The notes under the pieces: generated by a model | What the model was told of the DNA's origin: nothing | The model's input: only the letters and a program-made list of their open reading frames with translations | Database searches by the model: none | In this document: piece after piece, positions 2,039 to 20,000 of the stretch | How the letters are laid out: each line of letters starts with the position of its first letter | Position numbering within the stretch: position 1 is the first letter of the stretch | Translations under genes and position numbers: made by a program | Assembly: GCA_964388715.1 (NCBI GenBank) | Contig: CAYMBN010000007.1 | Location: 46,347 to 66,346 of the forward strand | Source of the DNA: an uncultured Methanosarcinales archaeon | Lineage (GTDB): Archaea > Nanobdellota > Nanobdellia > Woesearchaeales > CAYMBN01 | Direction: 5' to 3' | Length of the DNA stretch: 20,000 bases

Positions 2039-2681
2039 AAAAGAGGCATCACTTGAAAAAGTGATGAAGGATCGCATTAATTTCCTAGTAGAAGAAACAA
2101 TGCAAAAATTCTTAGGAGTTACAATTAGCGAACTTAACAAAGACCTTTCTGACAAAATATCAAGAAACCCTCTATTAGATTATGAAATAAACTCATCATT
2201 ATCTTTCAAAGTAGCAAAAAAAATGTTCAAAAAACAATTCCTATCAAAACTAATCAAAGCCCATTATGGAAATATTTCACTTGTTGCAAAAATTACTGGA
2301 CTAAACAGACGTTCAATTCATAGGGCAGTAAAAGAACTTGGAATTAAGATACACAAATTAAGAAAAGAAATGTTAACTCCAAAATACTTCAAAAAGGAAA
2401 CAGTAGATAGTATACTAAGACATACTCTTGACAATTATAAAACAATTTTACATCCAACAAAACTACAAAAAATGTATGAAAATGTAGAAACAGTAACAGA
2501 AGATATCATTACACACTTACCAGAACTTCAAATGACATGGAAACAAGCTGAAAAAGAGTTTGAAAAAGAATATCTAAAAAAAGTTCTAAAAAACAACAAC
2601 TTCAATCTAACAAAAACAGCAAAGAAAATCAAGTTAAGATATGAAACCTTGCTCAGAAAAATGAAGAAATTAGAGATATGA
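2013..2681 (+). CDS. DNA-binding protein with two Fis-type (HTH_8-like) helix-turn-helix modules
   Basis: Two internal repeats, FKVAKKMFKKQFLSKLIKAHYGNISLVAKITGLNRRSIHRAVKELGI and WKQAEKEFEKEYLKKVLKNNNFNLTKTAKKIKLRYETLLRKMKKLEI. Each resembles the C-terminal DNA-binding domain of NtrC-family proteins. There is no AAA+ or receiver domain. Confidence 0.8.
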   Translation: MKSSKKEDKKEASLEKVMKDRINFLVEETMQKFLGVTISELNKDLSDKISRNPLLDYEINSSLSFKVAKKMFKKQFLSKLIKAHYGNISLVAKITGLNRRSIHRAVKELGIKIHKLRKEMLTPKYFKKETVDSILRHTLDNYKTILHPTKLQKMYENVETVTEDIITHLPELQMTWKQAEKEFEKEYLKKVLKNNNFNLTKTAKKIKLRYETLLRKMKKLEI

Positions 2682-7000: not shown

Positions 7001-9647
7001 AAAAGAAGCAATATGTTTAGATGGAAGCATGATCGCAGTTGAAATATGTAAAGATGGTCAGTGGATTGCACAAGAAATTGAATGTCCTATTGTAGAATGT
7101 ATTGATGGAGAAACACAAACAACTGATTGTCCTGATGATTCTGTAATAATAACAGCAGAATGTGTTGAAAATACATGGATCTTAACTGAAAATGAATGTG
7201 GCCAAGAATGCCATGAAGAAGAAATAATTGAAAAAACATGTAAAGATGAGCTGTCAATCATAGTTGCAACCTGTGTAGACAATCAATGGGTTGAAACCAA
7301 TAATAAATGTTTAGATGATTATGGTGTTGTATGTGAAGATGAAGAAACAAGACAAAAAGAATGTCCTGATGATTCTATCATTGAAGTTGAAAAATGTGAA
7401 AATAACGCATGGGTTCGTTTAGATACTCAATGTCCTGAAGTTGGAGTTGTATGTGAAGAAGGAGAAAAACAAGAAGAACAATGTCCAGACGGTTCTACTA
7501 TTCTTACTGCAACATGTTCTAATAATGAATGGCACTATACACTAGTTGCCTGTCCAATTGAAGAAGAAACAGAATGTAAACTTGTTTCAGACTGTGGCCA
7601 AGATGAAGTTTGTTCAAATGGTGAATGTGTATATATTGAACCTGTTGAAGAAGAGGAAGAAGAAATAATTCCTTTACCTCCAGGAATAGAAGAAGAGGAG
7701 GAAGAGGAAGAACCTGAACAAGAACAACAACCAGAACCAGAAATTGAGGAAGAAGAAGAGATTATTGAAGAACCTCAACCTGAAGTTGAGGAAAGTGAAC
7801 CAGAAGAACAAGAAGTAGAGGAAGAGGAAACTCAAGAGCAAGAACCAGAACCGCAAGAAGAAGAGGAGCCAGAACCTGTTGTTGAGGAAGAACCTGAACC
7901 AACTCCAGAGCCTGAACCAGAACAACAAAATACAGAACCTGAAATAACTGGTAATGCTATAACAGCTTACGTTGTTGCAACTGGCATGGCTACTGCTAAT
8001 AAAGAATGTCGTGATGATAATCATTGTGATCAAAATCAATTCTGTTGGAGAGAATCTACTTGGGGTCATGAAGACCATCAAGGTATTTGCGCACCAGAAG
8101 GATGTTCAAGTGATGAAGATTGTCCTGATCCTAAAACACAACATTGTTGGGATAATGGATGTCATTGTAATAGATATGATAAACATTTTGACTGTGATAA
8201 AGACTATTCTAATGGATGTGAATCAACTGATGTAACTTGTGGCGGAACAGTTGATGCATGCGCTGTTCAAGAATGTGACAAACCAAACCAATGGTGTAAT
8301 CCTGAAAGAGGAGATTGTGAATGTAAAGAAGGATTTTATGAATGTAATGGTGATTGGGAAGACGGTTGCGAAAGCACTTCTGAATGTGACGGTTGTAAAA
8401 GTAGTGATGAATGTGCCAAACCAAGATGTGCTGAACATGATAACATACTTTACGAATTCGCATGTGTAAAAAGCGAACCATGGGTTGAAGAAAGGGGAAT
8501 GTTCATGTTCACAGGAGGATGTGAAGAAAGTTCAACAGAAACATGGCCACATGTGCATTTTAACTTCTGGGGAGAACCATTTGACCAATTAAGACCAAAA
8601 TACGAACAAAAAAGACATCAAAATGAACAAGATTGGTGTGAAAGAGAATTTGAACTTTTCAAAAAACAAAGAAAAGAAATTGAAAAATCTATTAATGAAG
8701 AATTTATGAATTGGTTCTTTAATATTTATGTTAGAAAAGATTCTGAAAAATGGACAAGTCATATAGGAGGAATCTTTGATACTTATTGGATGATTGTTGA
8801 CAATACAAGAGAAGTGGTAAGAACATTACAATGTATGGGTGAAGATGAATGGCCAAAAGAATTTGAACCAATTAATATCGAATTTGAAAGTGACTTTGGA
8901 TATGTTAAACTATGGGAAGAAGAAAAACATATCAAAGAATTTGATAAAATTGATACAATACTTTCACCATACATGCAAATTTGGATCTTCCCTCCTAAAG
9001 ATTTATTTAGATTTGAAATAGAAAAAGCTTACAAATTAAAGAAATTCCCAGGACCACCTGATGAAGAAGGTCCAGGCCCAACTCCAGAAGAAATTGAAGA
9101 AATAAGAAACAACCCAGTAATAAGAGAAGAATTTAGAAAAATACTAGATGAATTTGATGGAAGCATTAAGGTATTGCTTCAAATAGAAGATAACGATGAA
9201 ATAATTTACAAAGCTTTAGCTACTCTTGATGATGAAGTAATCTTTGATTTAAAAGTAGGAGAAGACATAACTCTTACAGAAGATGAAACAGATATTACCA
9301 TGACAATTGACTTAGAATGGTTATATGAAATGGTTAGTACAAGTGAAAAAGACATGAGAGGAGAAGAACTTGAAAGCCCACCATGGGACAGAAAACCAAG
9401 AATGGGTGCATTCAAGCAAATGGCAGGTAACATTAAGATGGGCTCAAAATTTGTTGGTGGATTAACAACAGGCAAAGTCAAAGTCAAACCAATGGGAAAA
9501 GCATTCAAATTAATGGGTTTCTTTAGAGATATGGATGAATTAAGGCCAGAAGATGAAAGAGATAGAAGAGGGGAAGGTGGAGAAGAAGAAAGAGGAGGAA
9601 AAAGGGACGAGCAAGATAAAGGAGAAGAAAAGGAAAGAAAAAGATAG
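4068..9647 (+). CDS. Giant secreted Cys-rich multi-repeat surface protein (1859 aa)
   Basis: Signal peptide MKRWVFFLIFVLILATVSA with a GAGGG SD and TTTATATA upstream. It has DxDGDxxVDCxD Ca-binding-like motifs twice, many disulfide-type repeats, a Glu/Pro linker, an ITGNAI motif and globular N- and C-terminal regions. Confidence 0.9.
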   Translation: MKRWVFFLIFVLILATVSATDSVDDVVNTITKHAEDYEAGKISLAQLSVYKNSVRSDFFEVLGVNEEEFRWGNETQQQIVEKAIQRFFGEPFEKTNWAWNINEDREEKLDESVPAWRKIIFDGKKVQITFNAWPEILYKKGKKQIFYWPGFEVRFKQQFDFDIDKLISSIKETATIYSTQGQKSDLLIDQIISTENLLNNYLQQNRFNCISAMETIFDKTEKAQKESLTKWRVYPYSGEDFDLWLELNTCNSCEWPWINFWIEVESHRMFRGKQDMDMEKIDKEELKHLSIDELYEKQEKLIDELVKEAEKLDRTGHSRLFEILPRNRHMIETISWAMDEIFYDRKEPEERQIIYEERIERLEEMFSEYGKIEKTPVTNNRYEKRLVENLEENQHSWCQHVNDIPCGADEGCVNGECIYAKGGEEDCRNNMDDDGDNVVDCNDPDCFEHKDCGKMCEPICNKPGGCWQTNDKLCRPVCEDCWGCYESGKSNEECDAICQEKCWPCSDSDEIKQACNDCWNCEDEAYGGCRKVCEPCNECSKKDGEDCSGECKECSLCNYENGDFQCNENQVFSEEEAYCMCEEGFYDCDENWNNGCESDFHCGVKRGKCKPECNVYYDCMDDCKDAIKESCDKHCEGVTEFDSCHDICMDTTEEKTDCRGICFKGASQHCQVCKKAKPRKQTQLEKCIKLCSGDVECKKACELEDRNRCLVGCGDDEDCKVACIGKEGVYFCDGKKQRVPCEDEYTYICNGVKSYKPCKLNYYVCNGKRQDTPCEGITECEMYQYYNEDEKSCRCIPGHYDCDGDGDCDYTQKCKGDMEVCDDNKDNDGDFMVDCNDMLDCSDGTACGDNKYCNNGECIEGQFCMLYCGTCSELDYQGCQCKVIENCCGNGICEEDETCPEDCEFQCMSDSDCEQPKCGYSECIESECLTVVQECKICEDGETKTEQCGKDIIVTEKCEKNQWTKTGEECITCSDGEAKEAICLDGSMIAVEICKDGQWIAQEIECPIVECIDGETQTTDCPDDSVIITAECVENTWILTENECGQECHEEEIIEKTCKDELSIIVATCVDNQWVETNNKCLDDYGVVCEDEETRQKECPDDSIIEVEKCENNAWVRLDTQCPEVGVVCEEGEKQEEQCPDGSTILTATCSNNEWHYTLVACPIEEETECKLVSDCGQDEVCSNGECVYIEPVEEEEEEIIPLPPGIEEEEEEEEPEQEQQPEPEIEEEEEIIEEPQPEVEESEPEEQEVEEEETQEQEPEPQEEEEPEPVVEEEPEPTPEPEPEQQNTEPEITGNAITAYVVATGMATANKECRDDNHCDQNQFCWRESTWGHEDHQGICAPEGCSSDEDCPDPKTQHCWDNGCHCNRYDKHFDCDKDYSNGCESTDVTCGGTVDACAVQECDKPNQWCNPERGDCECKEGFYECNGDWEDGCESTSECDGCKSSDECAKPRCAEHDNILYEFACVKSEPWVEERGMFMFTGGCEESSTETWPHVHFNFWGEPFDQLRPKYEQKRHQNEQDWCEREFELFKKQRKEIEKSINEEFMNWFFNIYVRKDSEKWTSHIGGIFDTYWMIVDNTREVVRTLQCMGEDEWPKEFEPINIEFESDFGYVKLWEEEKHIKEFDKIDTILSPYMQIWIFPPKDLFRFEIEKAYKLKKFPGPPDEEGPGPTPEEIEEIRNNPVIREEFRKILDEFDGSIKVLLQIEDNDEIIYKALATLDDEVIFDLKVGEDITLTEDETDITMTIDLEWLYEMVSTSEKDMRGEELESPPWDRKPRMGAFKQMAGNIKMGSKFVGGLTTGKVKVKPMGKAFKLMGFFRDMDELRPEDERDRRGEGGEEERGGKRDEQDKGEEKERKR
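6879..7556 (+). repeat. Six tandem ~35-40 aa four-Cys repeats within the giant protein
   Basis: Consensus C-x-(D/E)(G/E)E-x5-C-(P)D(G/D)S-x-I-x4-C-x2-N-x-W-x6-C, from CEDGETKTEQC to HYTLVACP. Confidence 0.85.
7638..7943 (+). repeat. Glu/Pro/Gln low-complexity linker (coding)
   Basis: EEEEEEEEPEQEQQPEPEIEEEEE...PEPTPEPEPE, encoded by GAA/GAG/CCA-rich DNA. Confidence 0.85.
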
Positions 9648-10236: not shown

Positions 10237-11079
10237 ATGATACAAGAACTTAAACAAATATTCCAATCATTAACAAAATCACTTGAAATTCTTTATTTAA
10301 TAGAAGATGTAAAACCCTGTGCAAGAATCATGGTTCATGAAGATAAACTCGAGCAAATTAAACAATTTCTTCAAACTAAAGGATTATACTTTACTTTATC
10401 TGATTTTAAAGTTATCAAAGAAGAAAATGCAAGATATTCTAACAAAGGTAAAAGAGTTCCAGTAGAATCAGAAGAAAAAGGATATTATTTTATGTACATT
10501 TCAAAAGAACAAAGCAAAACAGAACAAGCAAAACAACTTGAAGCACAAAAAAAACACAAAGAACTAGGTATTTTACTTGGTTATCCAGAATGTTGCTCAG
10601 AATTCTTCCAAAAACATAGTCAAAACCAAGAAAAAACAACCAATGATTACATTTTACCAGCTTACAACAACAGTCAAGGTTATAAATTTCCATTCCACAA
10701 TAACATAATAGCAAGATACTTTGATTATACTCTTCTTAATCACTTCCCTTGCAATTTCAACTGTAACAAATCAATTGAACTTGCAAAAAAACATCTTGAA
10801 ATAATTCAAAAACATAATCCACAACTTGTAAATGAAATACAAAAAATTCTAAAATCAGTTGCACTTTTCACAGAATACTCAGGAAAATACCTTTTCTTAA
10901 ACCCAGAATTCACAAAAAACGTAATTCTATTTAAAAATATTTTAGCAACAGCAAAAGGTAGAGTCTTTTATGATTTAGAAGAACAAAAAGAGTTTGAGAT
11001 CATTGGAGAACACCATATTAAGATTGGCTTTGACAAGAATCTAACATGTGAAGATTTATGTGTTTTTGTGTTTGAGTAA
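10237..11079 (+). CDS. DUF483-like archaeal protein
   Basis: LGILLGYPECCSEFF motif plus HFPCNFNC; recognised from memory of the family, not by a search. Confidence 0.65.
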   Translation: MIQELKQIFQSLTKSLEILYLIEDVKPCARIMVHEDKLEQIKQFLQTKGLYFTLSDFKVIKEENARYSNKGKRVPVESEEKGYYFMYISKEQSKTEQAKQLEAQKKHKELGILLGYPECCSEFFQKHSQNQEKTTNDYILPAYNNSQGYKFPFHNNIIARYFDYTLLNHFPCNFNCNKSIELAKKHLEIIQKHNPQLVNEIQKILKSVALFTEYSGKYLFLNPEFTKNVILFKNILATAKGRVFYDLEEQKEFEIIGEHHIKIGFDKNLTCEDLCVFVFE

Positions 11080-11085
11080 AATTGT

Positions 11086-12759
11086 TTAATCCTTCTTATC
11101 TCTATAACTTGTATGTAACAATTCCTTTGACATTTTTCCCAAAGGTTTTCCCAAGAATTCATCATATAATTGTATTATTGCAGGATTCTTATGAGACCTT
11201 CTTATTTTCATTATTTTATCTTGCTTATATATTGCTTGCCTTCTCTTTTTAATAATTTCATTAGTTGTTGGCCTTGGTTGACCTCCTCCTCCAATACAAC
11301 CTCCAGGACAAGCCATTATCTCAATAAAATGATATTTACTTTTACCTTGTTTTAACTCTTCCAAAACATAGCGTGCATTCCTTAAACCATTTACAACAGC
11401 AACATTCAACTTAAGACCATCAATTTTAATAGTTGCTTCTTTTATACCAGTACTATTACGCACTTCATTAAAATCAATCTTATCATATTCTTTACCAGTT
11501 ATCACATAATAAGCTGTTCTTAATGCAGCCTCCATCACCCCACCTGTTGTACCAAATATTGCAGCACCACCAGAACTCATACCAAGTGGTTGATCAAATT
11601 CCTCCTCATCACATTTAGACAAATCAATCCCTTGCTGTTTCATTAACCTAGATGTTTCCCTTGTTGTTAAAACATAGTCAACATCACCTTTTAACTCCTT
11701 TCTATTTGCTTCATACTTCTTAGCAGTACAAGGCATAATACTCACGACAACAATATTTTTAGGATCAATACTTTGCTTTTCAGCATAATAAGTTTTAACA
11801 ATCGCACCAAACATCTGATGAGGTGACTTACAACTAGAAAGATGTTTCAACAATTCAGGATAAAACTTTTCAATAAAATTAATCCAACCAGGAGAACATG
11901 AAGTTATCATTGGAAGAATATCTTTTTTCTTAATCCTTTCAACTAATTCATTAGCCTCTTCTATTATTGTTAAGTCAGCACCAAAATCAGTATCAAACAC
12001 CATATCAAAACCAAGTTTTCTTAGAGCAGTAACCATTTTTTTTGTAACCAAACTTCCTGGCTCCATCTCAAACTCTTCACCAATTGATGCTCTTACAGCA
12101 GGCGCTGTCTGCACAACAACATGTTTTGTTTTATCCTTAAGCACTTTTTTAACATCCTCAATATTATTAGTTTCACTTATTGCATTAGTTGGACACACTA
12201 AACTACACTGACCACAACTAACACAAACAGTATCAGATATTTTATGATCAAAGTAAGTACCAACTTCTAATGCATTACCTCGTCCTTGAAAACAAATTGC
12301 ATTAACACCTTGCACATCCCTACACTTTGCAACACACTTACCACATAAAATACATTTTGAAGGATCTCTTGTAATTGCATATGCAGAATCATCAACCTTT
12401 TTAGGTGGCTCAGGTTGAAACCTTAACTCTTTAAGATCATGCATATCCCTAAGTTGATGTAGTCGATTAAATTCACACTCTCTTTGATAATTTGAAGCCA
12501 ATAATTCAAGATTCAATCTTCGAGCTTTCATAACCTTGTCAGTGTTTGTTTTTATTATCATTCTTTCTGCAACTTTATTATCACAAGAAGTCATCAATTT
12601 TCCATTAACTTCAACAAGGCAAACTCTACACCTTCCTTTTACCTCAAGATCAGGATGAAAACATAATGTAGGTATCTCAATTCCAATCCTCCTAACAGCT
12701 TCCCAAATACTTATTCCTTTCTCAACCTTAACCTTTTTTCCATCAATTATTACTTGCAT
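11086..12759 (-). CDS. hydA: [FeFe]-hydrogenase catalytic subunit (group A, trimeric type)
   Basis: H-cluster motifs ITSCSPGW, MPCTAKKYEA and EIMACPGGCIGGGGQP. N-terminal [2Fe-2S] (LC...CRVC...SC), two [4Fe-4S] (CILCGKCVAKC; CVSCGQCSLVCP) and a fused small-subunit tail (SHKNP...LLHTSY). Confidence 0.97.
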   Translation of the reverse strand: MQVIIDGKKVKVEKGISIWEAVRRIGIEIPTLCFHPDLEVKGRCRVCLVEVNGKLMTSCDNKVAERMIIKTNTDKVMKARRLNLELLASNYQRECEFNRLHQLRDMHDLKELRFQPEPPKKVDDSAYAITRDPSKCILCGKCVAKCRDVQGVNAICFQGRGNALEVGTYFDHKISDTVCVSCGQCSLVCPTNAISETNNIEDVKKVLKDKTKHVVVQTAPAVRASIGEEFEMEPGSLVTKKMVTALRKLGFDMVFDTDFGADLTIIEEANELVERIKKKDILPMITSCSPGWINFIEKFYPELLKHLSSCKSPHQMFGAIVKTYYAEKQSIDPKNIVVVSIMPCTAKKYEANRKELKGDVDYVLTTRETSRLMKQQGIDLSKCDEEEFDQPLGMSSGGAAIFGTTGGVMEAALRTAYYVITGKEYDKIDFNEVRNSTGIKEATIKIDGLKLNVAVVNGLRNARYVLEELKQGKSKYHFIEIMACPGGCIGGGGQPRPTTNEIIKKRRQAIYKQDKIMKIRRSHKNPAIIQLYDEFLGKPLGKMSKELLHTSYRDKKD

Positions 12760-13826
12760 TTTTTCTCAAACTCTTTTCTAAAATACTTAAGCGCTGTTTT
12801 AAGATGTGTTGTTGAACATTGACCCAATGCACAAAATGAAGTTTCTGGAATATGTTCAGCAAGCTCTTCAATCAAATCAAGCTCATTCTTAGTACATTTC
12901 TTTTTTTGAAACAATTGTAATAACCTATAATTACCTTCTCTACAAGGAGTACAATTTCCACAATTTTCTTCAACAAAAAATTTAGTAATATTACTACACA
13001 AATCAGGCACAGACCTTTCCATTCCTACAATAATCAAAGTACCAGAACCAAACATTGCCCCTTTTCCACTTACTTTCTCAACAGACAATTCCAATGATTC
13101 GTCATAAGGCAAACAACCACCAGCTGCTCCAAAAAACACAGCTTTTGGATCAATTGGTTTAGCCTCCAACATCAATTTGTTTAATTGAATCCCTCTTTCT
13201 GCTTCATACACTCCAGGATTTTCAACATCACCTGAAATAGAAAATAACATTAACTGATTATTCCAATCATCTCTAAAAACTAAAGCAACTCTAGCAAGTG
13301 TTTCAACATTATTTATACAAGTTGGCCTTCCAAATAAACCAATCTGAGCAGGGTAAGGAGGTTTCCTTCTTGTCTCACCCCTTCTTCCCTCAATACTATT
13401 CATTATAGCTGTTTCCTCTCCACACAAATAAGAACCAGCACCAACAACAATTTTAATATCAACACCAGACTGAGCTTTCTTCAAAACTTTTTCAAGTATT
13501 TTCTTAAGATAAACATACTCTCTTCTAAGATAAATATAACATTCTTTACATTGTAAAGCATAACATGCAATATCAATTCCCTCTACTAAAAGTTCAGGAT
13601 TATTCTCGACAATAAATTTGTCCTTAAATGTACCTGGTTCACCCTCATCAAAATTAACAATAAGATATTCAGCTTTTCCAGTTAATTGCCATTTTTTACC
13701 TGTTGGAAAATTAGCACCACCTAATCCAATAAGACCTGAATCAACAACTTTCTGAATAACTTGTTCTGGTTTAAACTTTCTTACTTTTTTCCAACTCTCA
13801 TAATTATTTTTACTTAAAATCTTCAT
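12750..13826 (-). CDS. hydB: NuoF/HydB-like FMN/NADH-binding diaphorase subunit (short, 358 aa)
   Basis: GLGGANFPTGKKW, NFDEGEPGTFKD, GAGSYLCGEETA, PTCINNVET, an SLBB region, and a CGNCTPCREG...SFCALG [4Fe-4S] site. Confidence 0.93.
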   Translation of the reverse strand: MKILSKNNYESWKKVRKFKPEQVIQKVVDSGLIGLGGANFPTGKKWQLTGKAEYLIVNFDEGEPGTFKDKFIVENNPELLVEGIDIACYALQCKECYIYLRREYVYLKKILEKVLKKAQSGVDIKIVVGAGSYLCGEETAIMNSIEGRRGETRRKPPYPAQIGLFGRPTCINNVETLARVALVFRDDWNNQLMLFSISGDVENPGVYEAERGIQLNKLMLEAKPIDPKAVFFGAAGGCLPYDESLELSVEKVSGKGAMFGSGTLIIVGMERSVPDLCSNITKFFVEENCGNCTPCREGNYRLLQLFQKKKCTKNELDLIEELAEHIPETSFCALGQCSTTHLKTALKYFRKEFEKKCK

Positions 13827-14220
13827 TTTTCAATATTTTTTTTATTTTTTCTTCATTTAATTCAGTAAAAACCTTATCATTTATCATCATTGCAGGTGCT
13901 TTATCACAACAACCAATACAAGAAGCAATATCAACTGAAAACTTAGCATTACTTTCACCAGGTTTTAAACCAGTCAACTTTTCAATTATGTCCAAAATAT
14001 TGTCAGAACCTTTCATATGACAAACAGGACTTTCACAAACCTTAATATGAAACTTTCCTCTTTTTTCTAAATCAAAAAAAGAATAAAAAGAAGCTGCTTC
14101 ATACAATTCTCCTACTGAAACTTTAAATTTGTCAGCAACTTTTTTTAAAGATTTCTCTGACAAAAAACTTTCTTTATCTTGTATCTTTCTAAGTTCATTA
14201 AGTATTAATTTATTAACCAT
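13810..14220 (-). CDS. hydC: NuoE/HydC-like [2Fe-2S] thioredoxin-fold subunit
   Basis: ASFYSFF, VCESPVCHMKGS and SCIGCCDKAPAMMIN. Confidence 0.93.
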   Translation of the reverse strand: MVNKLILNELRKIQDKESFLSEKSLKKVADKFKVSVGELYEAASFYSFFDLEKRGKFHIKVCESPVCHMKGSDNILDIIEKLTGLKPGESNAKFSVDIASCIGCCDKAPAMMINDKVFTELNEEKIKKILKNEDFK

Positions 14221-14741
14221 CTCTTTTCAACCTGCAAAACACCATAAACAAGTATTCCCCCTAATAAAGCAGTTGCTAACTGAACAATACCCATTGCTTG
14301 CAAGAATACAACAGGCACAATCTTAAGAGAGTACAAAATAAAAGCATATGAAAACAATAATAATGCTTTGAAAAAACTTCCACTTATTAAAGTAACAAAG
14401 AAATTCTTTTTATTATACCTCTTAAATACATACACAAGCAATGCATTACCTAACCATATCATTGGAACAAAGTACAACAAAAATTTTGTTAATGATCCAA
14501 ACAAAATACCCGCACTAACAGCACCTAATGAAGGCATTATAATCACAGGCAAAACCCTATACCCTTTCAATGTAAGAGCACTCCTTATTAAAAATGCATT
14601 TACAAAAACTCCTACTAACAATTGTGGATGTTGCAGAAATATAGGTAACAAAAAACTAAACATACTTAATATTACCATTTCAATATTTTGATAAAAAATT
14701 GAATAATTTAACTGTGTTCGATTAAAATAACCAAAAACCAT
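14205..14741 (-). CDS. Integral membrane protein (~5-6 TM), ECF S-component-like
   Basis: Hydrophobic throughout, with QLLVGVFVNAFL, MPS and PMIWLGNALLV motifs. It has a GGGGTGA SD and overlaps hydC by 16 nt. Confidence 0.65.
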   Translation of the reverse strand: MVFGYFNRTQLNYSIFYQNIEMVILSMFSFLLPIFLQHPQLLVGVFVNAFLIRSALTLKGYRVLPVIIMPSLGAVSAGILFGSLTKFLLYFVPMIWLGNALLVYVFKRYNKKNFFVTLISGSFFKALLLFSYAFILYSLKIVPVVFLQAMGIVQLATALLGGILVYGVLQVEKRWLIN

Positions 14742-14788: not shown

Positions 14789-15094
14789 TTACTTAGTTAG
14801 ATCATTAACCCACTGTATAAAACTAGGATTTCCCTTCCCAACATCAAATGAAATTACACAAGGAACTTCATAAGAATGTAATTCTTTAACCTTTTTAATA
14901 ACATCTTCAACTAATTCATCCTTTGTTTTCATTATCATCCCAAACTCATCACTATGCTCAACCTTACCCTGCCATCTATAAATAGATTTTATAGGAAACA
15001 TATTAACACATGCAACTAATTTTTCCTCAACCAATGTTGTACTAATTTCTTTTGCTTCCTCTTCATTCTTAACAGTAACATACATTAATTTCAT
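14789..15094 (-). CDS. cutA: Divalent-cation tolerance protein CutA
   Basis: LVEEKLVACVN...SIYRWQG...HSYEVPCV. The start is moved to ATG 15094, which gives an ATGA overlap with the iscU stop and a GGTGG SD. Confidence 0.93.
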   Translation of the reverse strand: MKLMYVTVKNEEEAKEISTTLVEEKLVACVNMFPIKSIYRWQGKVEHSDEFGMIMKTKDELVEDVIKKVKELHSYEVPCVISFDVGKGNPSFIQWVNDLTK

Positions 15095-15477
15095 TTTGAT
15101 CCACCTACACACTTTTGCCTTTTTTTATAATTTTCAATTGCTTTTCTTAAAGCTTGCACACCCATCACAGAACAATGATATTTTATTTTTGGTAAATCAC
15201 CTAGTTCTTTAAGAATATCTTTAAAAGTTATTTTCAGTGCATCCTTCAACTTTTTTCCTTTTGCTAACTGACACATTGCATCTGTTGAAGCTATTGCAGC
15301 AACACAACCATAAGTAAGAAACTTGATATCTTTAATAACATCATCCTTTACTTTAATAAATATCTTCATCATATCGCCACACTTAACATTACCAATCTCA
15401 CCAATAGCATCTGCATTCTTTAATTCACCTGCATTTTTTGGATGAGTAAAGCGTTTAAGAGTTTTTTTGGTGTACAT
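15091..15477 (-). CDS. iscU: Fe-S cluster scaffold, NifU/IscU family
   Basis: HPKNAG, GNVKCGD, TYGCVAAIAS and LPKIKYHCS (three conserved Cys); AGGTGA SD. Confidence 0.95.
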   Translation of the reverse strand: MYTKKTLKRFTHPKNAGELKNADAIGEIGNVKCGDMMKIFIKVKDDVIKDIKFLTYGCVAAIASTDAMCQLAKGKKLKDALKITFKDILKELGDLPKIKYHCSVMGVQALRKAIENYKKRQKCVGGSK

Positions 15478-16642
15478 AGTCCATCACCTTCCCTAACGGA
15501 GATATTTTTCTTAATTTTTCAATTATTTTTGGCAAAACTTTTAATGCATAATCAATCTCTTTTTCAGTTGTAAACCTACTTAAAGTAAGCCTTAAACTAC
15601 CATTTGCTTCTTCATCACTAAGTCCAATAGCTTTCAAAACATAACTTGGCTCAAGTGTTTTTGCTGAACATGCAGAACCTGTTGAAGAACAAATCCACTT
15701 TTGGTCAAGATATCCTCCTAAAGCTTCTCCTTCAATACTTTTAAATGAAAAATTAGCATTATTACACAATCGTTTATCACCTTTTGGTCCATTCAGTTTA
15801 ACACCAGGTATTTGAAGTATACCTTCAATTAATTTATTTCTAAACTGAACCATTTTTTCAACATGTTTTTTATCCATACCAAGCTTAGCAGCCTCTGCAA
15901 ACCCAACAATTCCAGGAATATTTTCTGTCCCTGCTCTCAAACCAAATTCATGAGAACCACCATGCTGCCATTGTTCTATCTTTGTACCTTTTTTAACAAA
16001 AAGAGCACCAACACCTTTTGGACCATGAATCTTATGACTATTTAATGTAACTAAATCAAGATTTTGTTTTTTAACATCAAGCTCAGTTTTTGTATGACTC
16101 TGACAAGCATCAGTATGAAAATAAACATTGTGTTTTTTACAAACCTCTCCTAACTTTTCCAAATCCTGAATTGTTCCTATTTCATTATTTCCGTGAATAA
16201 TTGAAACTAAGATTGTTTTTGGTGTGATAGCTTTCTCAAGTTCCTGTGGGTTAATAAATCCTTCACTATCAACATCTAAATAAGTTATTTTAAATCCTTG
16301 TTTTTCAAGCCATTCACAACTCTTCAAAACACATTTATGTTCAACTTTTGTTGTAATAATGTGATTACCTCTATCTTTATTTGTAAAAGCTACTCCTTTC
16401 AAGGTCATATTATTTGATTCAGTTCCACCAGAAGTAAATATAATTTCATCTGAACTTGCATTAATTGTTTTTGCAATAACTTTCCTTGCTTTTTCCAATG
16501 CATCCTTTGAATCATGACCAAAATTGTGTGTTGAGGAAGCATTTCCATACTTTTCATTAAAATAAGGCATCATAACCTTAACAACTTTAGGGTCTACCAT
16601 TGTAGAAGCACCATTATCCAAATAAACTACACTAAATCTCAT
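15455..16642 (-). CDS. iscS: Cysteine desulfurase, IscS/NifS group I
   Basis: YLDNGAST, FTSGGTESNN, HTDACQS, SHKIHGPKG (PLP lysine) and STGSACS (catalytic Cys). Confidence 0.96.
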   Translation of the reverse strand: MRFSVVYLDNGASTMVDPKVVKVMMPYFNEKYGNASSTHNFGHDSKDALEKARKVIAKTINASSDEIIFTSGGTESNNMTLKGVAFTNKDRGNHIITTKVEHKCVLKSCEWLEKQGFKITYLDVDSEGFINPQELEKAITPKTILVSIIHGNNEIGTIQDLEKLGEVCKKHNVYFHTDACQSHTKTELDVKKQNLDLVTLNSHKIHGPKGVGALFVKKGTKIEQWQHGGSHEFGLRAGTENIPGIVGFAEAAKLGMDKKHVEKMVQFRNKLIEGILQIPGVKLNGPKGDKRLCNNANFSFKSIEGEALGGYLDQKWICSSTGSACSAKTLEPSYVLKAIGLSDEEANGSLRLTLSRFTTEKEIDYALKVLPKIIEKLRKISPLGKVMDYVHQKNS

Positions 16643-16935
16643 TTCTTACACCCCACACAACAATGATTTCTAACATGTTTCTCAACTAACTTTAAAATTG
16701 GAATAACAGTATCTTTATTTAATGAATAAATCCTTTTTTTCCCTTTCTGCTCAACATCAAGTATATGACATGATGCTAACTGCTTAAGACTATGCGATAC
16801 CTTACTCTGCTCTTCACCAATCTTTGCAGATATTTCAGTCACACTCAATTTACCATCAATCAAAGACTTAATAATACTCAATTTAGTCTTATTCGCAAAG
16901 TTCATAAAAAAGCTATCATATGACTTACATTTCAT
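16639..16935 (-). CDS. ArsR/SmtB-family transcriptional regulator with a C-terminal HCCxxC
   Basis: LSVTEIS...EQSKVSHSLKQL...QKGKKRIYSLN winged HTH, with an ATGA overlap with iscS. Confidence 0.9.
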   Translation of the reverse strand: MKCKSYDSFFMNFANKTKLSIIKSLIDGKLSVTEISAKIGEEQSKVSHSLKQLASCHILDVEQKGKKRIYSLNKDTVIPILKLVEKHVRNHCCVGCKK

Positions 16936-16977: not shown

Positions 16978-19740
16978 TTAGAGAACAATGTAGAATTCTT
17001 TTTTTTGTTTAGCTTTTTTTGCTGCATTTTTATAAGTATAATGATATGGATTATACGAAAAATCATAATCTTTTTTTAGAGCAAATTTAGGATAATTTCT
17101 TGAAACTATAATATCTTGTATTGTACCTCTGTTTGAATTGATCAATGGAGAAGTTGGTATAAGTAAACTTTGATACTTAAGTCGTCTTACAATCAATTTA
17201 GAAAATCTTACAATCTGATCATATAAACTATCATGCAAAGTAGAAGACAATATTGAACTAGCTGGCTGAATTGATAAGACTAAATAGTTATTATTTTCCT
17301 CAGAAAGTGTTCTGTAAAGAGCTCCACCACAAGCATTATCCTCTTTATCAAAAATAATCATCTGCCAAAAGTCAGGAGAATCCCATAATCTTTGATCTGT
17401 AGCAACACAAACACCCATATTTAACATTGCCACAGAATGCATCTTTCTTTTTGACAATACAAATTTAAAAGGTTTTCCAAGAGGAAAACTTAAATCACCT
17501 CTTGGTTTAAACTTTTTCATTTCTTTTCTCATCCCCTCATATTGTTCACCATATAAATCATTGAATATTTTTTGAACAAGGTTTTTTTCAATTACATTTT
17601 GTGATAAGGAATTTAGCCAATCGTCTATTTGATCTGGAGTTATATCTTTATTCCATTCTATATTTTCAACAAAAAAACCATTTCTTTCTAGGATTTTTTT
17701 TATTTTTCCCTGTTTATTTATGGCTTTTGAATTCCACAATCCAAATAATGTTTTTGCTAATTTTTTATAATCTGTTTTTGATTTACCTAATAGTTTTGAG
17801 AACTGCTTTGGAAATGCTTCTTGTGCTCTTGAAAGTAATGTAAAAATAAGATCATTTTTTAATCTATCTCCTATAAATTCTTTATATTGCATCAACGTTT
17901 TATGATCTGTGTTAAAATTATGTAATGAATCCCCATTAGAAACATTAAAAGCATAAATTTTTTTTAAGTATTTTTTTTGATTCTTTCTCAATGTTTTATC
18001 TTTATATTCTTTAAACAAATTAATACCCAGTTCTTCAGGAATTACTTTCATACCTTTCATATTTACCTCATTTACAGCTTCTATTAAGTTATTCCATGAA
18101 GAAGAATCTAATCTTTCTTTTTCCTTTAAGACATAAGTGCCCCCTTTTATTCTTACTGTCTTACCACTCAACCTGTTTAATACATAAGGAATATCAGACT
18201 GTCTATCTTTTCTTAATTCTAATAATTTATGATAAACATCTCTATCAACAGATATTTCAGGAGCAAAGACAGTATACAAAACACCTAAACCAAGAACAGT
18301 ATTATTATATTTAGTTAGAGTACCAGCAACAATCTCTTTTTTTATTTTTTTTACATCTTTAAACAAATTTTTATAAAGAAGATCCTTTTCTTTTGCTGTC
18401 CCTAAACAAATCTTTTTAAATTCACTATAAAGTTGAATTAAATTAACAGGAGTTTGTCTTAAAAATTCCTTTATTATTTCCGTTTCTTTTGAAAATGGTT
18501 TGTCAAATGCATGAACAAGACAACCTATTACAATAACATGTTTAAGAATATCATATGCCCTTTTTGATTTTTTCTGAACAATATATCTTAATATTTCTAA
18601 ATCCTCCTTTGTTTTAACCATCTTAGAAACAGGAGTTATTTCACCAAAGGCCTCCAAACATAAAAAAGTTGCAGCTGTTTGTGATTCTGCTGTTGGAATT
18701 AACAATTCATCAAATAAATCAACACCAAACAAATCAAAAAAATATTTTAAGTTTTTAAAAGAGATAAATAAAGAACCTACAGCTCCCTTACAAAGTTTTC
18801 CAAGTTTTAATAAACGCCTTTTGACTAATAAAAATGTTTTTTTATCTTTAAGATATTTTTCAACAGATTTAAAACCATAAGAAAACATAGGACCTATATC
18901 CTTACCTGCCCTCTGAGCCATTTTAACTAAATGTGGCCAGAATTCTGGATATTCTTTGATCAAATCTTCAAGAGAAATTAATCCACTATGTAACGAAGCT
19001 GCACCAACACCTGCTGCTTCAGACATTTTAACGACTTCAGGCCAGAACTTAGGGCGTATATAAATTGATTCTCCAATATTATGTAAATCTATTCCAAGAA
19101 ATTCAGTGTTATGATCACTAACTAATTCAACTTCAGCTATTCTAACTATACCTGGCCACAATTCAGGATGTTCTCTAATCAAATCTTTAATTTCAGGTAA
19201 AACCTCATAAAACAAATAAGGTATGAATATCCCAGGAATTTCAGCCAATTTAGTTGTTCCAGCCCAATGCTTGACTAAGAAATCAGCTAATTCTGGTTCC
19301 TCTTTAACATGAAAACCCCATTCTTTTAATTGTTTTAATCTTCTTTCATATTCTGTTTGTCCCATGTTAAACTTTTCATGTTCAATATTTAAAAATATCT
19401 TTTGTAAATCAGAGTGAAGCAATGCAATCCAACCTTTCTGAGGTTGTATTTGTTTAATATGCTCAAGTAGTTTCTTAATATCCCCCAATTCCTTCTTAAA
19501 CTTTTCTTCAACACCTTCATCTTCACACCTTTTTATTCTCGCAGTAGAATAATCATGTAAATCTTCAAGAATAATTTTTATTTTTTTTAGTTCCCTTCTC
19601 ATTTCTCCAAAATCTTGTTTTACTTCATCAAGCCAGAGATAAGCAATATCTCTTTTAACATATTTAAGAACATCTTTCCAAAGCAATTTAAGCTTCTCCT
19701 CTTCTCTAGACAACTCTTTTAAGTCTGATTTCTTTGACAT
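16978..19740 (-). CDS. Large hypothetical protein (~920 aa) with helical repeats
   Basis: Long uninterrupted ORF. The start is more likely ATG 19740 (MSKKSDL) than TTG 19791, because a TTTTATAT box lies about 22 nt upstream. It has an N-terminal coiled coil and (H/Y)PE(L/F)WP...V(K/R)(M/I)AE..G repeats. Confidence 0.8.
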   Translation of the reverse strand: MSKKSDLKELSREEEKLKLLWKDVLKYVKRDIAYLWLDEVKQDFGEMRRELKKIKIILEDLHDYSTARIKRCEDEGVEEKFKKELGDIKKLLEHIKQIQPQKGWIALLHSDLQKIFLNIEHEKFNMGQTEYERRLKQLKEWGFHVKEEPELADFLVKHWAGTTKLAEIPGIFIPYLFYEVLPEIKDLIREHPELWPGIVRIAEVELVSDHNTEFLGIDLHNIGESIYIRPKFWPEVVKMSEAAGVGAASLHSGLISLEDLIKEYPEFWPHLVKMAQRAGKDIGPMFSYGFKSVEKYLKDKKTFLLVKRRLLKLGKLCKGAVGSLFISFKNLKYFFDLFGVDLFDELLIPTAESQTAATFLCLEAFGEITPVSKMVKTKEDLEILRYIVQKKSKRAYDILKHVIVIGCLVHAFDKPFSKETEIIKEFLRQTPVNLIQLYSEFKKICLGTAKEKDLLYKNLFKDVKKIKKEIVAGTLTKYNNTVLGLGVLYTVFAPEISVDRDVYHKLLELRKDRQSDIPYVLNRLSGKTVRIKGGTYVLKEKERLDSSSWNNLIEAVNEVNMKGMKVIPEELGINLFKEYKDKTLRKNQKKYLKKIYAFNVSNGDSLHNFNTDHKTLMQYKEFIGDRLKNDLIFTLLSRAQEAFPKQFSKLLGKSKTDYKKLAKTLFGLWNSKAINKQGKIKKILERNGFFVENIEWNKDITPDQIDDWLNSLSQNVIEKNLVQKIFNDLYGEQYEGMRKEMKKFKPRGDLSFPLGKPFKFVLSKRKMHSVAMLNMGVCVATDQRLWDSPDFWQMIIFDKEDNACGGALYRTLSEENNNYLVLSIQPASSILSSTLHDSLYDQIVRFSKLIVRRLKYQSLLIPTSPLINSNRGTIQDIIVSRNYPKFALKKDYDFSYNPYHYTYKNAAKKAKQKKEFYIVL

Positions 19741-19787
19741 ATGTTTTATAATTATTATAGAATATAAAAAAGTTTCTAAATCTAATT

Positions 19788-20000
19788 TCAATAATTAGGC
19801 ATCCTACTTGTCATCATTGCAGGAATCATCTTTGCTAAGACAGGAAATGTTTTATATCCACTATCTGTGTTAAAATGTCCACCATCTTTGATTATATTAA
19901 GACCAGTATTAAGATGTGATACAAGCTCAGCTCCTTTAGCAATAGGCACATAAGGATCATTCTCAGAATTAATCACAACAAAATTCTTACAATTTTCATT
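19788..20000 (-). CDS. RBBP9/YdeN-family alpha/beta hydrolase, C-terminal part (5' end outside the window)
   Basis: INSENDPYVP (catalytic Asp) and GGHFNTDSGY (catalytic His); the frame is open to the window edge. Confidence 0.85.
   Translation of the reverse strand, partial: NENCKNFVVINSENDPYVPIAKGAELVSHLNTGLNIIKDGGHFNTDSGYKTFPVLAKMIPAMMTSRMPNY

Follow-up and report, generated by a model that had tools for sequence, protein, structure and literature searches.

Does the trimeric [FeFe]-hydrogenase encoded in this 20-kb stretch of DNA (20,000 nucleotides; the window) bifurcate electrons, as published annotations of such archaeal loci propose, or does it exchange electrons between NAD(P)H and H2 alone? 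We found that hydABC probably encodes a soluble heterotrimeric [FeFe]-hydrogenase of a DPANN archaeon, which would link NAD(P)H directly to H2 with neither ferredoxin nor bifurcation. The sequence supports this non-bifurcating NAD(P)H reading well but does not prove it, and most of the support comes from the reduced flavoprotein subunit, HydB.

Gene organisation and host lineage

The hydrogenase genes and those upstream of them lie on the same strand, as follows.

11086-12759, minus strand: hydA, 557 aa, [FeFe]-hydrogenase catalytic subunit (Pfam, NCBIfam and PDB matches)
12750-13826, minus strand: hydB, 358 aa, NuoF-like flavoprotein (Pfam, NCBIfam, alignments, fold match)
13810-14220, minus strand: hydC, 136 aa, NuoE-like thioredoxin-fold [2Fe-2S] subunit (Pfam, NCBIfam, PDB)
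14205-14741, minus strand: membrane protein, 178 aa, about 5-6 hydrophobic helices (hydropathy)
14789-15112, minus strand: cutA, upstream of the hydrogenase genes (Pfam/NCBIfam)
15091-15477, minus strand: nifU scaffold gene, upstream (Pfam/NCBIfam)
15455-16642, minus strand: nifS cysteine desulfurase gene, upstream (Pfam/NCBIfam)
16639-16935, minus strand: arsR-type regulator gene, upstream (Pfam/NCBIfam)

In the list of open reading frames the three hyd genes overlap, as an earlier note on this DNA had described, hydC and hydB by 17 nt and hydB and hydA by 10 nt. Such overlapping, co-directional hydC-hydB-hydA genes correspond to the trimeric 'group A3' by genetic organisation, in the usage of Huang 2021 and Greening 2024. 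The gene for the 178-aa membrane protein in turn overlaps hydC by 16 nt. This protein had no Pfam match, even at E = 10, and its single-sequence structure model was poor (pLDDT 63.6); its language-model neighbours included a cluster named '[Fe] hydrogenase, HymD subunit' (score 0.94). In archaeal group A loci hyd6TM, the gene of a membrane protein of 4 to 6 helices, occupies the same position, and the order hyd6TM-hydC-hydB-hydA is listed in Table S2 of Greening 2024. Judging from position, helices and language-model neighbours, the membrane protein is probably a hyd6TM/HymD-like companion of archaeal group A hydrogenases. The arsR-type, nifS, nifU and cutA genes are co-directional with the hydrogenase genes and overlap or lie at most 47 nt apart, possibly forming a single transcription unit with them; in one locus of the same Table S2, too, a cysteine desulfurase gene lies immediately upstream. 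Pfam and NCBIfam searches of the window found no hydE, hydF or hydG and no other nuo genes, and it holds no tRNA or rRNA markers.

Loci of this type have been catalogued before, as archaeal group A3 with a subclass M3c HydA and hyd6TM (Greening 2024; Huang 2021). The earlier note called such enzymes unusual for DPANN archaea, which was overstated: 44 archaeal enzymes, from at least six DPANN phyla, are assigned to group A3 in Greening 2024, where A3 is described as the most widespread archaeal [FeFe] hydrogenase. Its suggestion of a DPANN-like host fared better. All 14 organism-named relatives of NifS (70-77% identity) were archaeal, 13 of them DPANN, as were eight of the nine organism-named relatives of HydB, and the same operon occurs in an Aenigmarchaeota MAG (locus L001). 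A DPANN origin of the locus is thus likely from these relatives, and a Woesearchaeota/Nanoarchaeota-like lineage is the most likely host. Within their own sub-clade, the closest named relatives of HydA and HydB are labelled only '[bacterium]'.

The HydA and HydC subunits

Judged by its domains and motifs, HydA is a group A [FeFe]-hydrogenase, a full H-cluster enzyme with a variant L1 motif. It matched the Pfam families Fe_hyd_lg_C (E = 3.4e-106), Fe_hyd_SSU (1.6e-23) and Fer2_4 (1e-14), and exceeded the cut-offs of two NCBIfam models: NF040763, 'NADH-dependent [FeFe] hydrogenase, group A6' (807.9 bits, cut-off 765), and TIGR02512 (529.8 bits, cut-off 405.95). The most similar PDB chain was T. 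kivui HydA1 (8a6t_A, 606 bits), followed by the A. woodii (545) and T. maritima (421) subunits. An N-terminal [2Fe-2S] site (C33/C44/C47/C59) and two [4Fe-4S] sites (C136-C146 and C179-C189) precede the H-domain and a small-subunit-like tail, with no extra C-terminal domain, and the cluster cysteine positions are invariant across our HydA alignment (A2).

The consensus motifs of the H-cluster are TSCCPxW (L1), MPCxxKxxE (L2) and ExMxCxxGCxxGGGQP (L3). The earlier note had reported all three; L2 and L3 are indeed canonical, and L1 is a variant.

11884-11904, minus strand: L1, variant TSCSPGW, HydA 286-292 (alignments)
11710-11736, minus strand: L2, MPCTAKKYE, canonical, HydA 342-350 (C344 invariant in A2)
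11275-11322, minus strand: L3, EIMACPGGCIGGGGQP, canonical, HydA 480-495 (C484 and C488 invariant in A2)
12442-12504, minus strand: lost His-ligated [4Fe-4S] site, HydA 86-106 (alignment A2)

Ser289 replaces the second Cys of the TSCCP found in T. kivui HydA1 and C. pasteurianum CpI, while Cys288, the proton-relay residue, and the remaining ligands of the H-cluster are all conserved. TSCSP was present in 90 of the 120 listed HydA proteins, this one included. A. woodii HydA1 has the same variant, with Ser301 standing in for a Cys that would ligate the [4Fe-4S] part of the H-cluster; its H-cluster infrared signature was apparently unaffected and the complex was active (Katsyv 2023).

A further feature, additional to those in the earlier note, is the loss of the His-ligated [4Fe-4S] cluster. 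Where bacterial relatives carry HxxxCxxCxxxxxC, residues 86-106 of HydA show a 6-residue gap and a lone C95, without a His/Cys triad, and PF10588, the His-ligated cluster domain, had no match in HydA. In alignment A2 the site was missing from 13/13 archaeal-type rows and kept in 7/7 bacterial A6-type rows. Within the listed set of 120 HydA proteins 42 lacked the site, and its loss combined with TSCSP was a minority pattern (13/120), both counts including this HydA. An N-terminus of the form '[2Fe2S]-2[4Fe4S]' without (His)[4Fe4S] is the subclass M3c layout of Table S2 in Greening 2024. The His-ligated cluster of solved HydABC structures, A5, links protomers and lies off the path from H-cluster to FMN (Katsyv 2023).

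HydC matched 2Fe-2S_thioredx (E = 1.5e-38) and its best PDB match was T. kivui HydC (89.5 bits). Its cluster cysteines are C62, C67, C101 and C105, with an additional C104.

HydB architecture and bifurcation criteria

The 358-aa HydB is as minimal as the earlier note had proposed, by Pfam and by alignment. Only Complex1_51K (1.2e-42) and NADH_4Fe-4S (1.1e-21) matched, leaving a NuoF core that comprises an FMN/NAD(P)H site and a single [4Fe-4S] cluster (C289/C292/C295/C332). This core begins at residue 4-6, with no N-terminal [2Fe-2S] domain before it, and the protein ends 1-3 residues past it, with no C-terminal 2x[4Fe-4S] domain; nor is there a CxxCxxCxxxC ferredoxin motif anywhere in HydB. 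M1 aligns across 26/26 family members. Among PDB chains T. thermophilus Nqo1 scored highest (256 bits), above the HydB subunits of T. maritima, A. woodii and T. kivui (about 220-224), and the AlphaFold model of HydB (pLDDT 88.2) superposed on Nqo1 as its best fold match, with a TM of 0.90 over the query and nothing left over. Small size is general among the 120 listed HydB proteins (this one included): 113 had at most 395 aa, six were HydC-HydB fusions and none had a ferredoxin motif. Elsewhere in the window the only ferredoxin-type motif was a single match inside an antisense 71-aa ORF; a partner with a ferredoxin domain could be encoded elsewhere in the genome.

We took criteria for bifurcating and non-bifurcating beta subunits from Losey 2020 and Schut 2022. 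In bifurcating enzymes, positions 232 and 234 (T. maritima HydB numbering; A202 and M204 of A. mobile) are A or E and M, respectively, and position 367, close to FMN, is Phe; non-bifurcating beta subunits instead have T/S, K/S/A and Tyr, and lack both GGPSG and additional cluster domains (Losey 2020). Clusters B2-B5 occur in all true Bfu enzymes and are missing from non-bifurcating homologues (Schut 2022). The number of clusters is not diagnostic by itself, as Losey 2020 warns, and the C. tengcongensis enzyme has the full cluster set and works with NADH alone, ferredoxin not having been assayed (Losey 2017). Three sites in HydB bear on the residue criteria.

13620-13649, minus strand: nucleotide-site motif DEGEPGTFKD, HydB 60-69; T66/K68 form the non-bifurcating signature
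13413-13442, minus strand: GAGSYLCGEE, HydB 129-138; Y133 where bifurcating enzymes have Phe
13113-13133, minus strand: FGAAGGC at the SLBB position, HydB 232-238; GGPSGG in bifurcating enzymes

The first motif is the flavin-region sequence that the earlier note had quoted; the bifurcating A. mobile HydB reads DEGDPGAFMD there and GAGAFVCGEE at the second site. GGPSGG was found in 0/120 listed HydB proteins (own included), although the family consensus at this position, FGASGGC, is nearer to the bifurcating GGPSGGC than to Nqo1. Among the comparison proteins, DPGA[F/Y]MD, F and GGPSGG co-occurred with C-terminal extensions of 63-91 aa holding 8-12 Cys, and those with EPGTFKD and Y had no Cys-rich C-terminal extension. 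The HydB sequence has none of the five features tested here that define bifurcating beta subunits. On its residues and domains, HydB falls on the non-bifurcating side of every published criterion in Losey 2020 and Schut 2022 and on the bifurcating side of none, in agreement with the non-bifurcating signatures first noticed.

HydB phylogeny and comparison with known systems

In both of our trees HydB falls, with other short proteins of DPANN type, in a separate clade that has strong support. A FastTree tree of 165 rows placed it in a 26-row clade (support 99), apart from a 33-row clade (98) holding 27 of the 28 rows with bifurcating signatures. A quick IQ-TREE tree of 78 rows placed it in a 20-row clade (100) together with the Aenigmarchaeota locus L001, and all 18 bifurcating-signature rows in a separate 20-row clade (97). 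The HydB clade, whose members include fused HydC-HydB proteins (527-538 aa), some of them named Nanohalarchaeota, was also apart from complex I NuoF and from the HydB of a Syntrophomonadaceae MAG (locus L077), in an unrooted tree with unresolved deep branching. Locus L077 served as a family-level stand-in for S. wolfei, whose characterised enzyme, like that of S. aciditrophicus, was outside the set of sequences.

The enzyme had been likened to S. wolfei Hyd1ABC, which is non-bifurcating, NADH-dependent and ferredoxin-independent (Losey 2017). That likeness holds for the alpha-beta-gamma gene set, the non-bifurcating signature residues and the short HydB, which likewise has neither an N-terminal [2Fe-2S] domain nor a C-terminal cluster domain. 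It does not extend to lineage: because HydB does not group with L077, the functional analogy to S. wolfei is not based on common descent. L077 has the same gene order (hydC 160 aa, hydB 407 aa, hydA 574 aa), but its HydB is longer (407 v 358 aa), only 36% identical and in a different clade, and its HydA has the PF10588 domain that ours lacks. S. aciditrophicus HydAB is another non-bifurcating, NADH-dependent enzyme (Losey 2020); its beta subunit is a HydC-HydB fusion, unlike the separate overlapping genes here.

The solved bifurcating complexes of T. kivui (8a6t), A. woodii (7q4v/8a5e) and T. maritima (7p5h) share with ours the HydC fold and the HydB FMN and [4Fe-4S] core, and A. woodii also the Ser-for-Cys H-cluster ligand. 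Unlike ours, their HydB subunits have 599-630 aa, additional [2Fe-2S]/[4Fe-4S] clusters and DPGAFMD/F/GGPSG-type signatures; the alignment with the T. maritima and A. woodii proteins that the earlier note had proposed bears this out. Their HydA has the bridging cluster A5 (Katsyv 2023), missing here, and T. maritima HydA is longer (645 v 557 aa). Complex I NuoE-NuoF (T. thermophilus Nqo1/Nqo2, Aquifex NuoEF) gave the best sequence and fold match for HydB, with EPG[T/S]FKD and the flavin-site Tyr in common and, as here, one [4Fe-4S] cluster plus a NuoE-type [2Fe-2S]. Unlike NuoF, HydB is tied to a hydrogenase, and it is about 40 residues shorter by loop deletions, with about 30 fewer at the N-terminus.

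From the archaeal A3/M3c loci of Greening 2024, with which it shares the HydA N-terminus without a His cluster and the DPANN host, we saw no structural difference; only the reading differs. Greening 2024 and Huang 2021 predict that archaeal A3 loci are bifurcating, an assignment made by gene organisation. Under it, NADH and reduced ferredoxin would be co-oxidised, with ferredoxin docking away from the missing HydB domains, for example on HydA or HydC or through a partner encoded elsewhere. The similarity of HydA to HydA1 of the bifurcating T. kivui and A. woodii complexes, the retention of HydC and the SLBB motif agree with such an enzyme, and DPANN fermenters are expected to produce reduced ferredoxin too (Greening 2024). 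We nevertheless regard it as unlikely, given the five missing beta-subunit features, the position of HydB outside the bifurcating-signature clade in both trees and the loss of the surface His-ligated cluster of HydA. In addition, ferredoxin is reduced at the HydB C-terminus in solved HydABC (Katsyv 2023), and that C-terminus does not exist here. The biochemical assays described in the consulted sections of Greening 2024 concern groups A1, B, E and F only, so the bifurcating label of A3 carries no assay there. For this locus, the minimal HydB suggests that the published bifurcating annotation should be doubted.

Proposed electron path and direction

Since HydB has no extra clusters for reaching ferredoxin, and HydA has no surface His-ligated cluster, direct NAD(P)H/H2 coupling is most likely. 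If the three subunits form a HydABC complex, it would have the most reduced cofactor set of the HydABC type, a single wire whose order is modelled on solved homologues. Electrons would pass between NAD(P)H, FMN in HydB, the HydB [4Fe-4S] cluster (C289/292/295/332), the HydA [2Fe-2S] cluster (C33/44/47/59), the two HydA [4Fe-4S] clusters and the H-cluster. The HydC [2Fe-2S] cluster would sit beside the flavin, like cluster N1a of complex I.

We infer ferredoxin independence, the H2-producing direction and the use of NADH or NADPH from analogy and thermodynamics. The equilibrium H2 pressure of the NADH/H2 couple is about 67-70 Pa, and if HydABC makes H2 from NADH, the reaction would be favourable only below roughly 70 Pa H2; reference values for a non-bifurcating NADH-dependent enzyme are 17-40 Pa (Losey 2017). 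Dependence on an H2-consuming partner, which the earlier note had also raised, would be an inference only, by the same analogy.

The same non-bifurcating enzyme could instead run in the uptake direction, from environmental or host H2 to NAD(P)H, with no H2-consuming partner implied. S. wolfei Hyd1ABC (Losey 2017) and S. aciditrophicus HydAB (Losey 2020) are reversible, H2 oxidation by NAD+ is exergonic whenever H2 exceeds about 70 Pa, and T. kivui HydABC uses NADP (Katsyv 2023), which makes a biosynthetic NADPH role conceivable. Nothing in the window bears on direction, but the published reconstructions are of fermenters that need to dispose of reductant (Greening 2024; Huang 2021), and we think uptake rather improbable. 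It is very unlikely that the intact genes yield no active hydrogenase (lacking H-cluster maturation or serving another redox role) or that the contig is bacterial and not DPANN: the window has no hydE/F/G and no tRNA or rRNA markers, maturases are missing from most archaeal genomes with [FeFe] hydrogenases (Greening 2024), a Ser replaces a cluster-ligand Cys and the closest HydA and HydB relatives are labelled '[bacterium]', but the other H-cluster ligands and Cys288 are conserved, the A. woodii enzyme is active with the same Ser (Katsyv 2023), archaeal enzymes from maturase-less genomes were active once artificially matured (Greening 2024), and the NifS relatives and the Aenigmarchaeota operon of L001 point to an archaeal contig.

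The hydrogenase operon and its HydB subunit

The hydrogenase operon in the window is real and intact. Its three genes, whose ORF coordinates in the window overlap by 17 nt (hydC/hydB) and 10 nt (hydB/hydA), are:

13810-14220, minus strand, hydC, 136 aa
12750-13826, minus strand, hydB, 358 aa
11086-12759, minus strand, hydA, 557 aa

HydA, HydB and HydC are textbook partners. Pfam searches of HydA returned Fe_hyd_lg_C (E = 3.4e-106), Fe_hyd_SSU, an N-terminal 2Fe-2S domain and a 2x[4Fe-4S] ferredoxin domain. HydB matched Complex1_51K and NADH_4Fe-4S only, with a sub-threshold match to SLBB, and HydC fell in the thioredoxin-like [2Fe-2S] family. HydA scored 807.9 bits against NCBIfam NF040763 ('NADH-dependent [FeFe] hydrogenase, group A6'; curated cut-off 765), while HydB matched the NuoF model and HydC the NuoE model, both under the cut-offs. 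ORF calls, overlaps, Pfam and NCBIfam thus confirmed the minimal hydC-hydB-hydA operon described in the earlier note.

The best PDB sequence match of HydB was T. thermophilus Nqo1 (256 bits); the bifurcating NiFe-HydB of A. mobile reached 240 bits and NuoF of Aquifex 239 bits, ahead of the T. maritima (626 aa), A. woodii (599 aa) and T. kivui (630 aa) HydB subunits at 220-224 bits. The Nqo1 match spans residues 4-356 of HydB, so there is nothing before or after the core, and the core of Nqo1 is ~40 residues longer because of loop deletions in HydB. An AlphaFold model of HydB from 26 family sequences (pLDDT 88.2) aligned to Nqo1 with a TM of 0.90 over the query. In comparisons with bifurcating HydBs, whose extra domains lower it, the target-normalised TM reached 0.52-0.58. 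The sole cluster site of HydB, C289, C292, C295 and C332, is invariant in the family; C88/C93/C96 were considered as an extra metal site and rejected, as these cysteines are not conserved in the family.

Signatures of electron bifurcation

Losey 2020 separates bifurcating from non-bifurcating beta subunits on four points: additional Fe-S domains in the former; A or E plus M, as against T/S plus K/S/A, at T. maritima HydB 232/234; Phe rather than Tyr at 367; and GGPSG in the SLBB region of bifurcating enzymes. Schut 2022 places clusters B2-B5 in all true Bfu enzymes, reports them missing from non-bifurcating homologues, and describes A. mobile A202 and M204 as Bfu-specific; in the alignment with the window HydB, these residues fall on 'PGAFMD' of A. 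mobile. The window HydB has T66, K68 and Y133, is without the extra domain, and reads FGAAGGC in the SLBB region, with the caveat that the family consensus there, FGASGGC, is closer to GGPSGGC than to Nqo1. All of the bifurcating features named in the two papers were absent from it and all of the non-bifurcating ones were present. Among the comparison proteins, DPGA[F/Y]MD, Phe and GGPSGG co-occurred with C-terminal extensions of 63-91 aa containing 8-12 Cys, and EPGTFKD and Tyr with the absence of those extensions.

No separate gene for the missing domains turned up within the 20 kb: a six-frame scan for CxxC(x2-5)CxxxC recovered only the two HydA sites and one match in a 71-aa antisense ORF, at 140-172, and Pfam found no ferredoxin domain in the neighbouring genes of the window. 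An NADH-H2 enzyme without bifurcation, the function proposed in the earlier note, is the best-supported reading of these sequences, and we judge it more likely than not. The dependence on an H2-consuming partner also proposed there is one step further removed.

Comparator loci and characterised enzymes

A scan of genome contigs with generic NuoF patterns yielded 79 bacterial loci, most of them presumably complex I nuoF, and only one close relative, an Aenigmarchaeota MAG locus (L001). The sole bacterial locus inspected among the 79, from a Syntrophomonadaceae MAG (L077) and used as a family-level stand-in for S. wolfei Hyd1ABC, is a hydrogenase operon. Both repeat the gene order hydC-hydB-hydA.

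Subunits of the two comparator loci
L001 (Aenigmarchaeota MAG): hydC 147 aa, hydB 370 aa, hydA 566 aa; PF10588 absent from hydA
L077 (Syntrophomonadaceae MAG): hydC 160 aa, hydB 407 aa, hydA 574 aa; hydA with PF10588

The L077 HydB carries DEGEPGTYKD and Tyr and is 36% identical to the window HydB. Directly upstream of its operon (L077 1171-2862, plus strand) lies a second M3-type hydA of 563 aa. According to Losey 2017, S. wolfei HydB1 is likewise 407 aa long, its enzyme forms 17-40 Pa H2 from NADH without ferredoxin, and the H2 limits are ~70 Pa at NADH equilibrium and >1000 Pa for confurcation; our own arithmetic gave an equilibrium of 67 Pa.

Phylogeny of HydB

Among the 120 HydB matches listed, the window's included, 113 were of 395 aa or less, one was of intermediate length and six were HydC-HydB fusions of 527-538 aa; the listed matches were 49-59% identical to the window HydB. 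The full-library search with HydB gave 1193 cluster representatives at E ≤ 1e-30. The fusions (P0036-P0039, P0070 and P0099), some of them named Nanohalarchaeota, lie inside the window's HydB clade, a parallel to S. aciditrophicus HydB, which has been described as such a fusion.

Two unrooted trees were built on the NuoF core. The FastTree phylogeny held 165 rows, two of 166 candidates having been left out as short matches. The second, a quick IQ-TREE run under LG+C20 PMSF, used a 78-row subset: the window, 18 clade members, 18 rows combining the bifurcating signature with a C-terminal extension, a random draw of 16 N-fused and 14 NuoF-sized proteins, five other short proteins and six locus proteins. 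With FastTree, the window fell in a 26-row clade of short and HydC-fused proteins (support 99), and 27 of the 28 bifurcating-signature rows in another clade of 33 rows (98). With IQ-TREE, the window grouped with the Aenigmarchaeota locus in a 20-row clade (SH-aLRT 100), all 18 bifurcating-signature rows formed part of a separate 20-row clade (97), and the L077 HydB and four complex I NuoF sequences lay outside the window's clade. Deep branches were weakly supported.

The phylogeny called for in the earlier note set the window's clade apart from the bifurcating-signature clade in both trees, and we can say that the clade is distinct. As to a possible derivation of this HydB from a bifurcating HydB by domain loss, the SLBB motif does resemble the bifurcating form, but neither unrooted tree supported nesting in the bifurcating clade.

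HydA and the predicted electron path

The sequence observations in the earlier note were right, but a variant L1 was overlooked among the H-cluster motifs. L1 of HydA reads TSCSPGW (residues 286-292) instead of TSCCPxW, and Ser289 occupies the alignment column that holds the second TSCCP Cys in T. kivui HydA1 and CpI. In the alignments A. woodii HydA1 likewise has Ser at L1. There, as described in Katsyv 2023, Ser takes the place of a Cys ligand of the H-cluster [4Fe-4S], the H-cluster infrared signature is without apparent change and the complex is active. TSCSP occurred in 90 and TSCCP in 27 of the 120 listed HydA matches, the window's included; judging by titles, we found no literature on the TSCSP motif. 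A further Cys, in S[ST]C[KR]SP, was present in 117 of these 120. In the window it is C310 of SSCKSP (HydA 308-313; window 11821-11838, minus strand). C310 is invariant in our HydA alignment of archaeal-type and bacterial A6-type rows, in TSCSP and TSCCP rows alike; the residue in T. kivui HydA1 and CpI is Ala. This Cys might conceivably compensate for the Ser at the cluster-ligand position.

Also overlooked was the absence of the His-ligated [4Fe-4S] site from HydA, in which a Pfam search found no match to PF10588. In all 13 archaeal-type rows of the alignment, the window's among them, six residues are deleted and the His/Cys triad is absent, and all seven bacterial 'A6' rows keep HxxxCxxCxxxxxC; C95 is a single stray Cys in the lost region of the window HydA. 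In the solved HydABC of Katsyv 2023, this cluster (A5) bridges the two protomers and lies off the H-cluster-to-FMN path.

Ligand sets are present for one FMN/[4Fe-4S] subunit and one [2Fe-2S] subunit and, in HydA, for a [2Fe-2S], two [4Fe-4S] and the H-cluster. By analogy with solved homologues, electrons would pass from NAD(P)H to FMN, the HydB [4Fe-4S], the HydA [2Fe-2S], the two [4Fe-4S] and the H-cluster, and the HydC cluster would lie next to the flavin. For the N- and C-terminal HydB clusters that make up the ferredoxin branch in bifurcating enzymes, there would be no counterpart. With 22 Fe predicted, compared with 30 in S. wolfei Hyd1ABC, the window enzyme would give a very compact model of an NADH-to-H-cluster wire.

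Relation to catalogued archaeal hydrogenases

The locus type is known from two surveys. Huang 2021 found that Woesearchaeota encode trimeric hydrogenases, with genes resembling nuoF and nuoE, and assigned them to the bifurcating group A3. Greening 2024 reported 44 A3 enzymes from archaea, distributed over six or more DPANN phyla; its Table S2 orders loci as hyd6TM-hydC-hydB-hydA, one with a cysteine desulfurase gene upstream, and gives HydA subclass M3c as '[2Fe2S]-2[4Fe4S]'. The window operon belongs to this archaeal A3/M3c kind. In Greening 2024, enzyme assays cover groups A1, B, E and F only, and the HydB cofactors of the A3 model are taken from a non-bifurcating formate dehydrogenase chain (7E5Z_B). 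In the open-access literature Greening 2024 was the only paper we found that names HydABC together with archaea and DPANN, and we found none there of a non-bifurcating hydrogenase in DPANN or Woesearchaeales; a non-bifurcating reading of archaeal A3 appears not to be in print yet.

There is an even chance, in our judgement, that the whole DPANN 'group A3' clade, in which a short HydB (~358-395 aa) or HydC-HydB fusion is paired with an M3c-type HydA, is non-bifurcating, a separate minimal NAD(P)H-only lineage independent of the Syntrophomonadaceae type. A recent preprint (bioRxiv 10.64898/2026.05.13.725050) recovered nuoF as the sole complex I gene in Nanobdellota, in 148 of 256 genomes, and read it as 'a retained single-protein role', with hydrogenase absent from the main text. 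These 'orphan nuoF' genes are probably hydB of operons like the window's, as they would be if the clade reading is true.

Were these enzymes non-bifurcating, the functional label of the two surveys would be corrected, and assumptions about the energetics of a large DPANN group would change. Published models of metabolism in Woesearchaeota, Aenigmarchaeota, Altiarchaeota and their relatives would mis-state reductant disposal, and H2 release driven by NADH could not rise beyond tens of pascals, hence a thermodynamic tie to H2-consuming hosts or neighbours. Whether H2 can exceed 1000 Pa (confurcating) or stalls near 70 Pa (NADH-only) decides between fermenting alone and needing an H2 sink, and bears on proposed Woesearchaeota-methanogen associations.

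Neighbouring genes

The operon is flanked by:

2-1297, minus strand, ORF running past the window end, with Big_9, cadherin-like and PKD domains
1433-1867, plus strand, 144-aa cytidylyltransferase-like protein (PF01467, E = 5.5e-20; weak FAD_syn match)
2013-2681, plus strand, 222-aa protein with two Fis-type HTH_8 stretches (E = 7.5e-13)
4068-9647, plus strand, 1859-aa ORF; signal-like hydrophobic stretch at the N-terminus, repeated patterns holding hundreds of Cys, and a long acidic tract rich in Glu and Pro
10237-11079, plus strand, 280-aa ORF converging on hydA, stop codons 6 nt apart
14205-14741, minus strand, 178-aa protein with ~5-6 hydrophobic helices, overlapping the hydC start by 16 nt
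14789-16935, minus strand, arsR-type regulator, nifS, nifU and cutA, directly upstream of the hydrogenase genes
16978-19791, minus strand, 937-aa ORF with a TTG start

The 178-aa membrane protein matched no Pfam family, even at E = 10, and occupies the position of 'hyd6TM' in Greening 2024. Its language-model neighbours included a cluster named '[Fe] hydrogenase, HymD subunit' (0.94; ECF_trnsprt on 11% of members), and DPANN and bacterial clusters without a name at 0.96-0.97; a single-sequence fold (pLDDT 63.6, pTM 0.34) was too poor for a fold search. Flavin uptake, metal uptake or a membrane tether are guesses at its role.

The arsR-type, nifS, nifU and cutA genes are co-directional with the hydrogenase genes and overlapping or closely spaced, so the Fe-S assembly genes may be co-transcribed with the Fe-S-rich hydrogenase. 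For a relative's NifS (P0403), HydB (P0015) and HydA (P0149), the longest contig is in each case 18013 nt, which hints that the linkage may be conserved.

The 1859-aa ORF, without a Pfam match, has the look of a giant protein, either secreted or on the surface, and the ORF at 2-1297 is probably a surface adhesin-like protein. The 937-aa ORF matched nothing in Pfam or NCBIfam, and a language-model search gave it no family and low recognition (1891), and no help with taxonomy. The 280-aa ORF had a weak, sub-threshold DUF483 match (E = 1.6e-4). Archaeal FAD synthetase RibL has a cytidylyltransferase-like fold; if the 144-aa protein is of that kind, it would be a flavin-cofactor gene near a flavoenzyme operon.

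Taxonomic affinity

A DPANN origin of the window is likely. The tRNA and Rfam scans were both empty, and the window therefore offers no RNA marker for taxonomy; its G+C is 26-37%. Relatives of NifS, encoded two genes upstream of the membrane-protein gene, were 70-77% identical, and the 14 with organism names comprised eight Woesearchaeota, four Nanoarchaeota, one Aenigmatarchaeota and one 'Euryarchaeota archaeon SM23-78', with no bacteria. Organism-named HydB relatives were four Woesearchaeota, two Nanohalarchaeota, one Altiarchaeales, one Aenigmarchaeota and one '[bacterium]'. Against a DPANN origin, the window's own HydA/HydB sub-clade is labelled '[bacterium]' only, and HydA identity to bacterial 'A6' (54-57%) nearly matches that to archaeal sequences (57-63%). 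Pfam describes the family of the HTH_8 stretches as one of bacterial regulators, an odd find on a contig of otherwise archaeal appearance.
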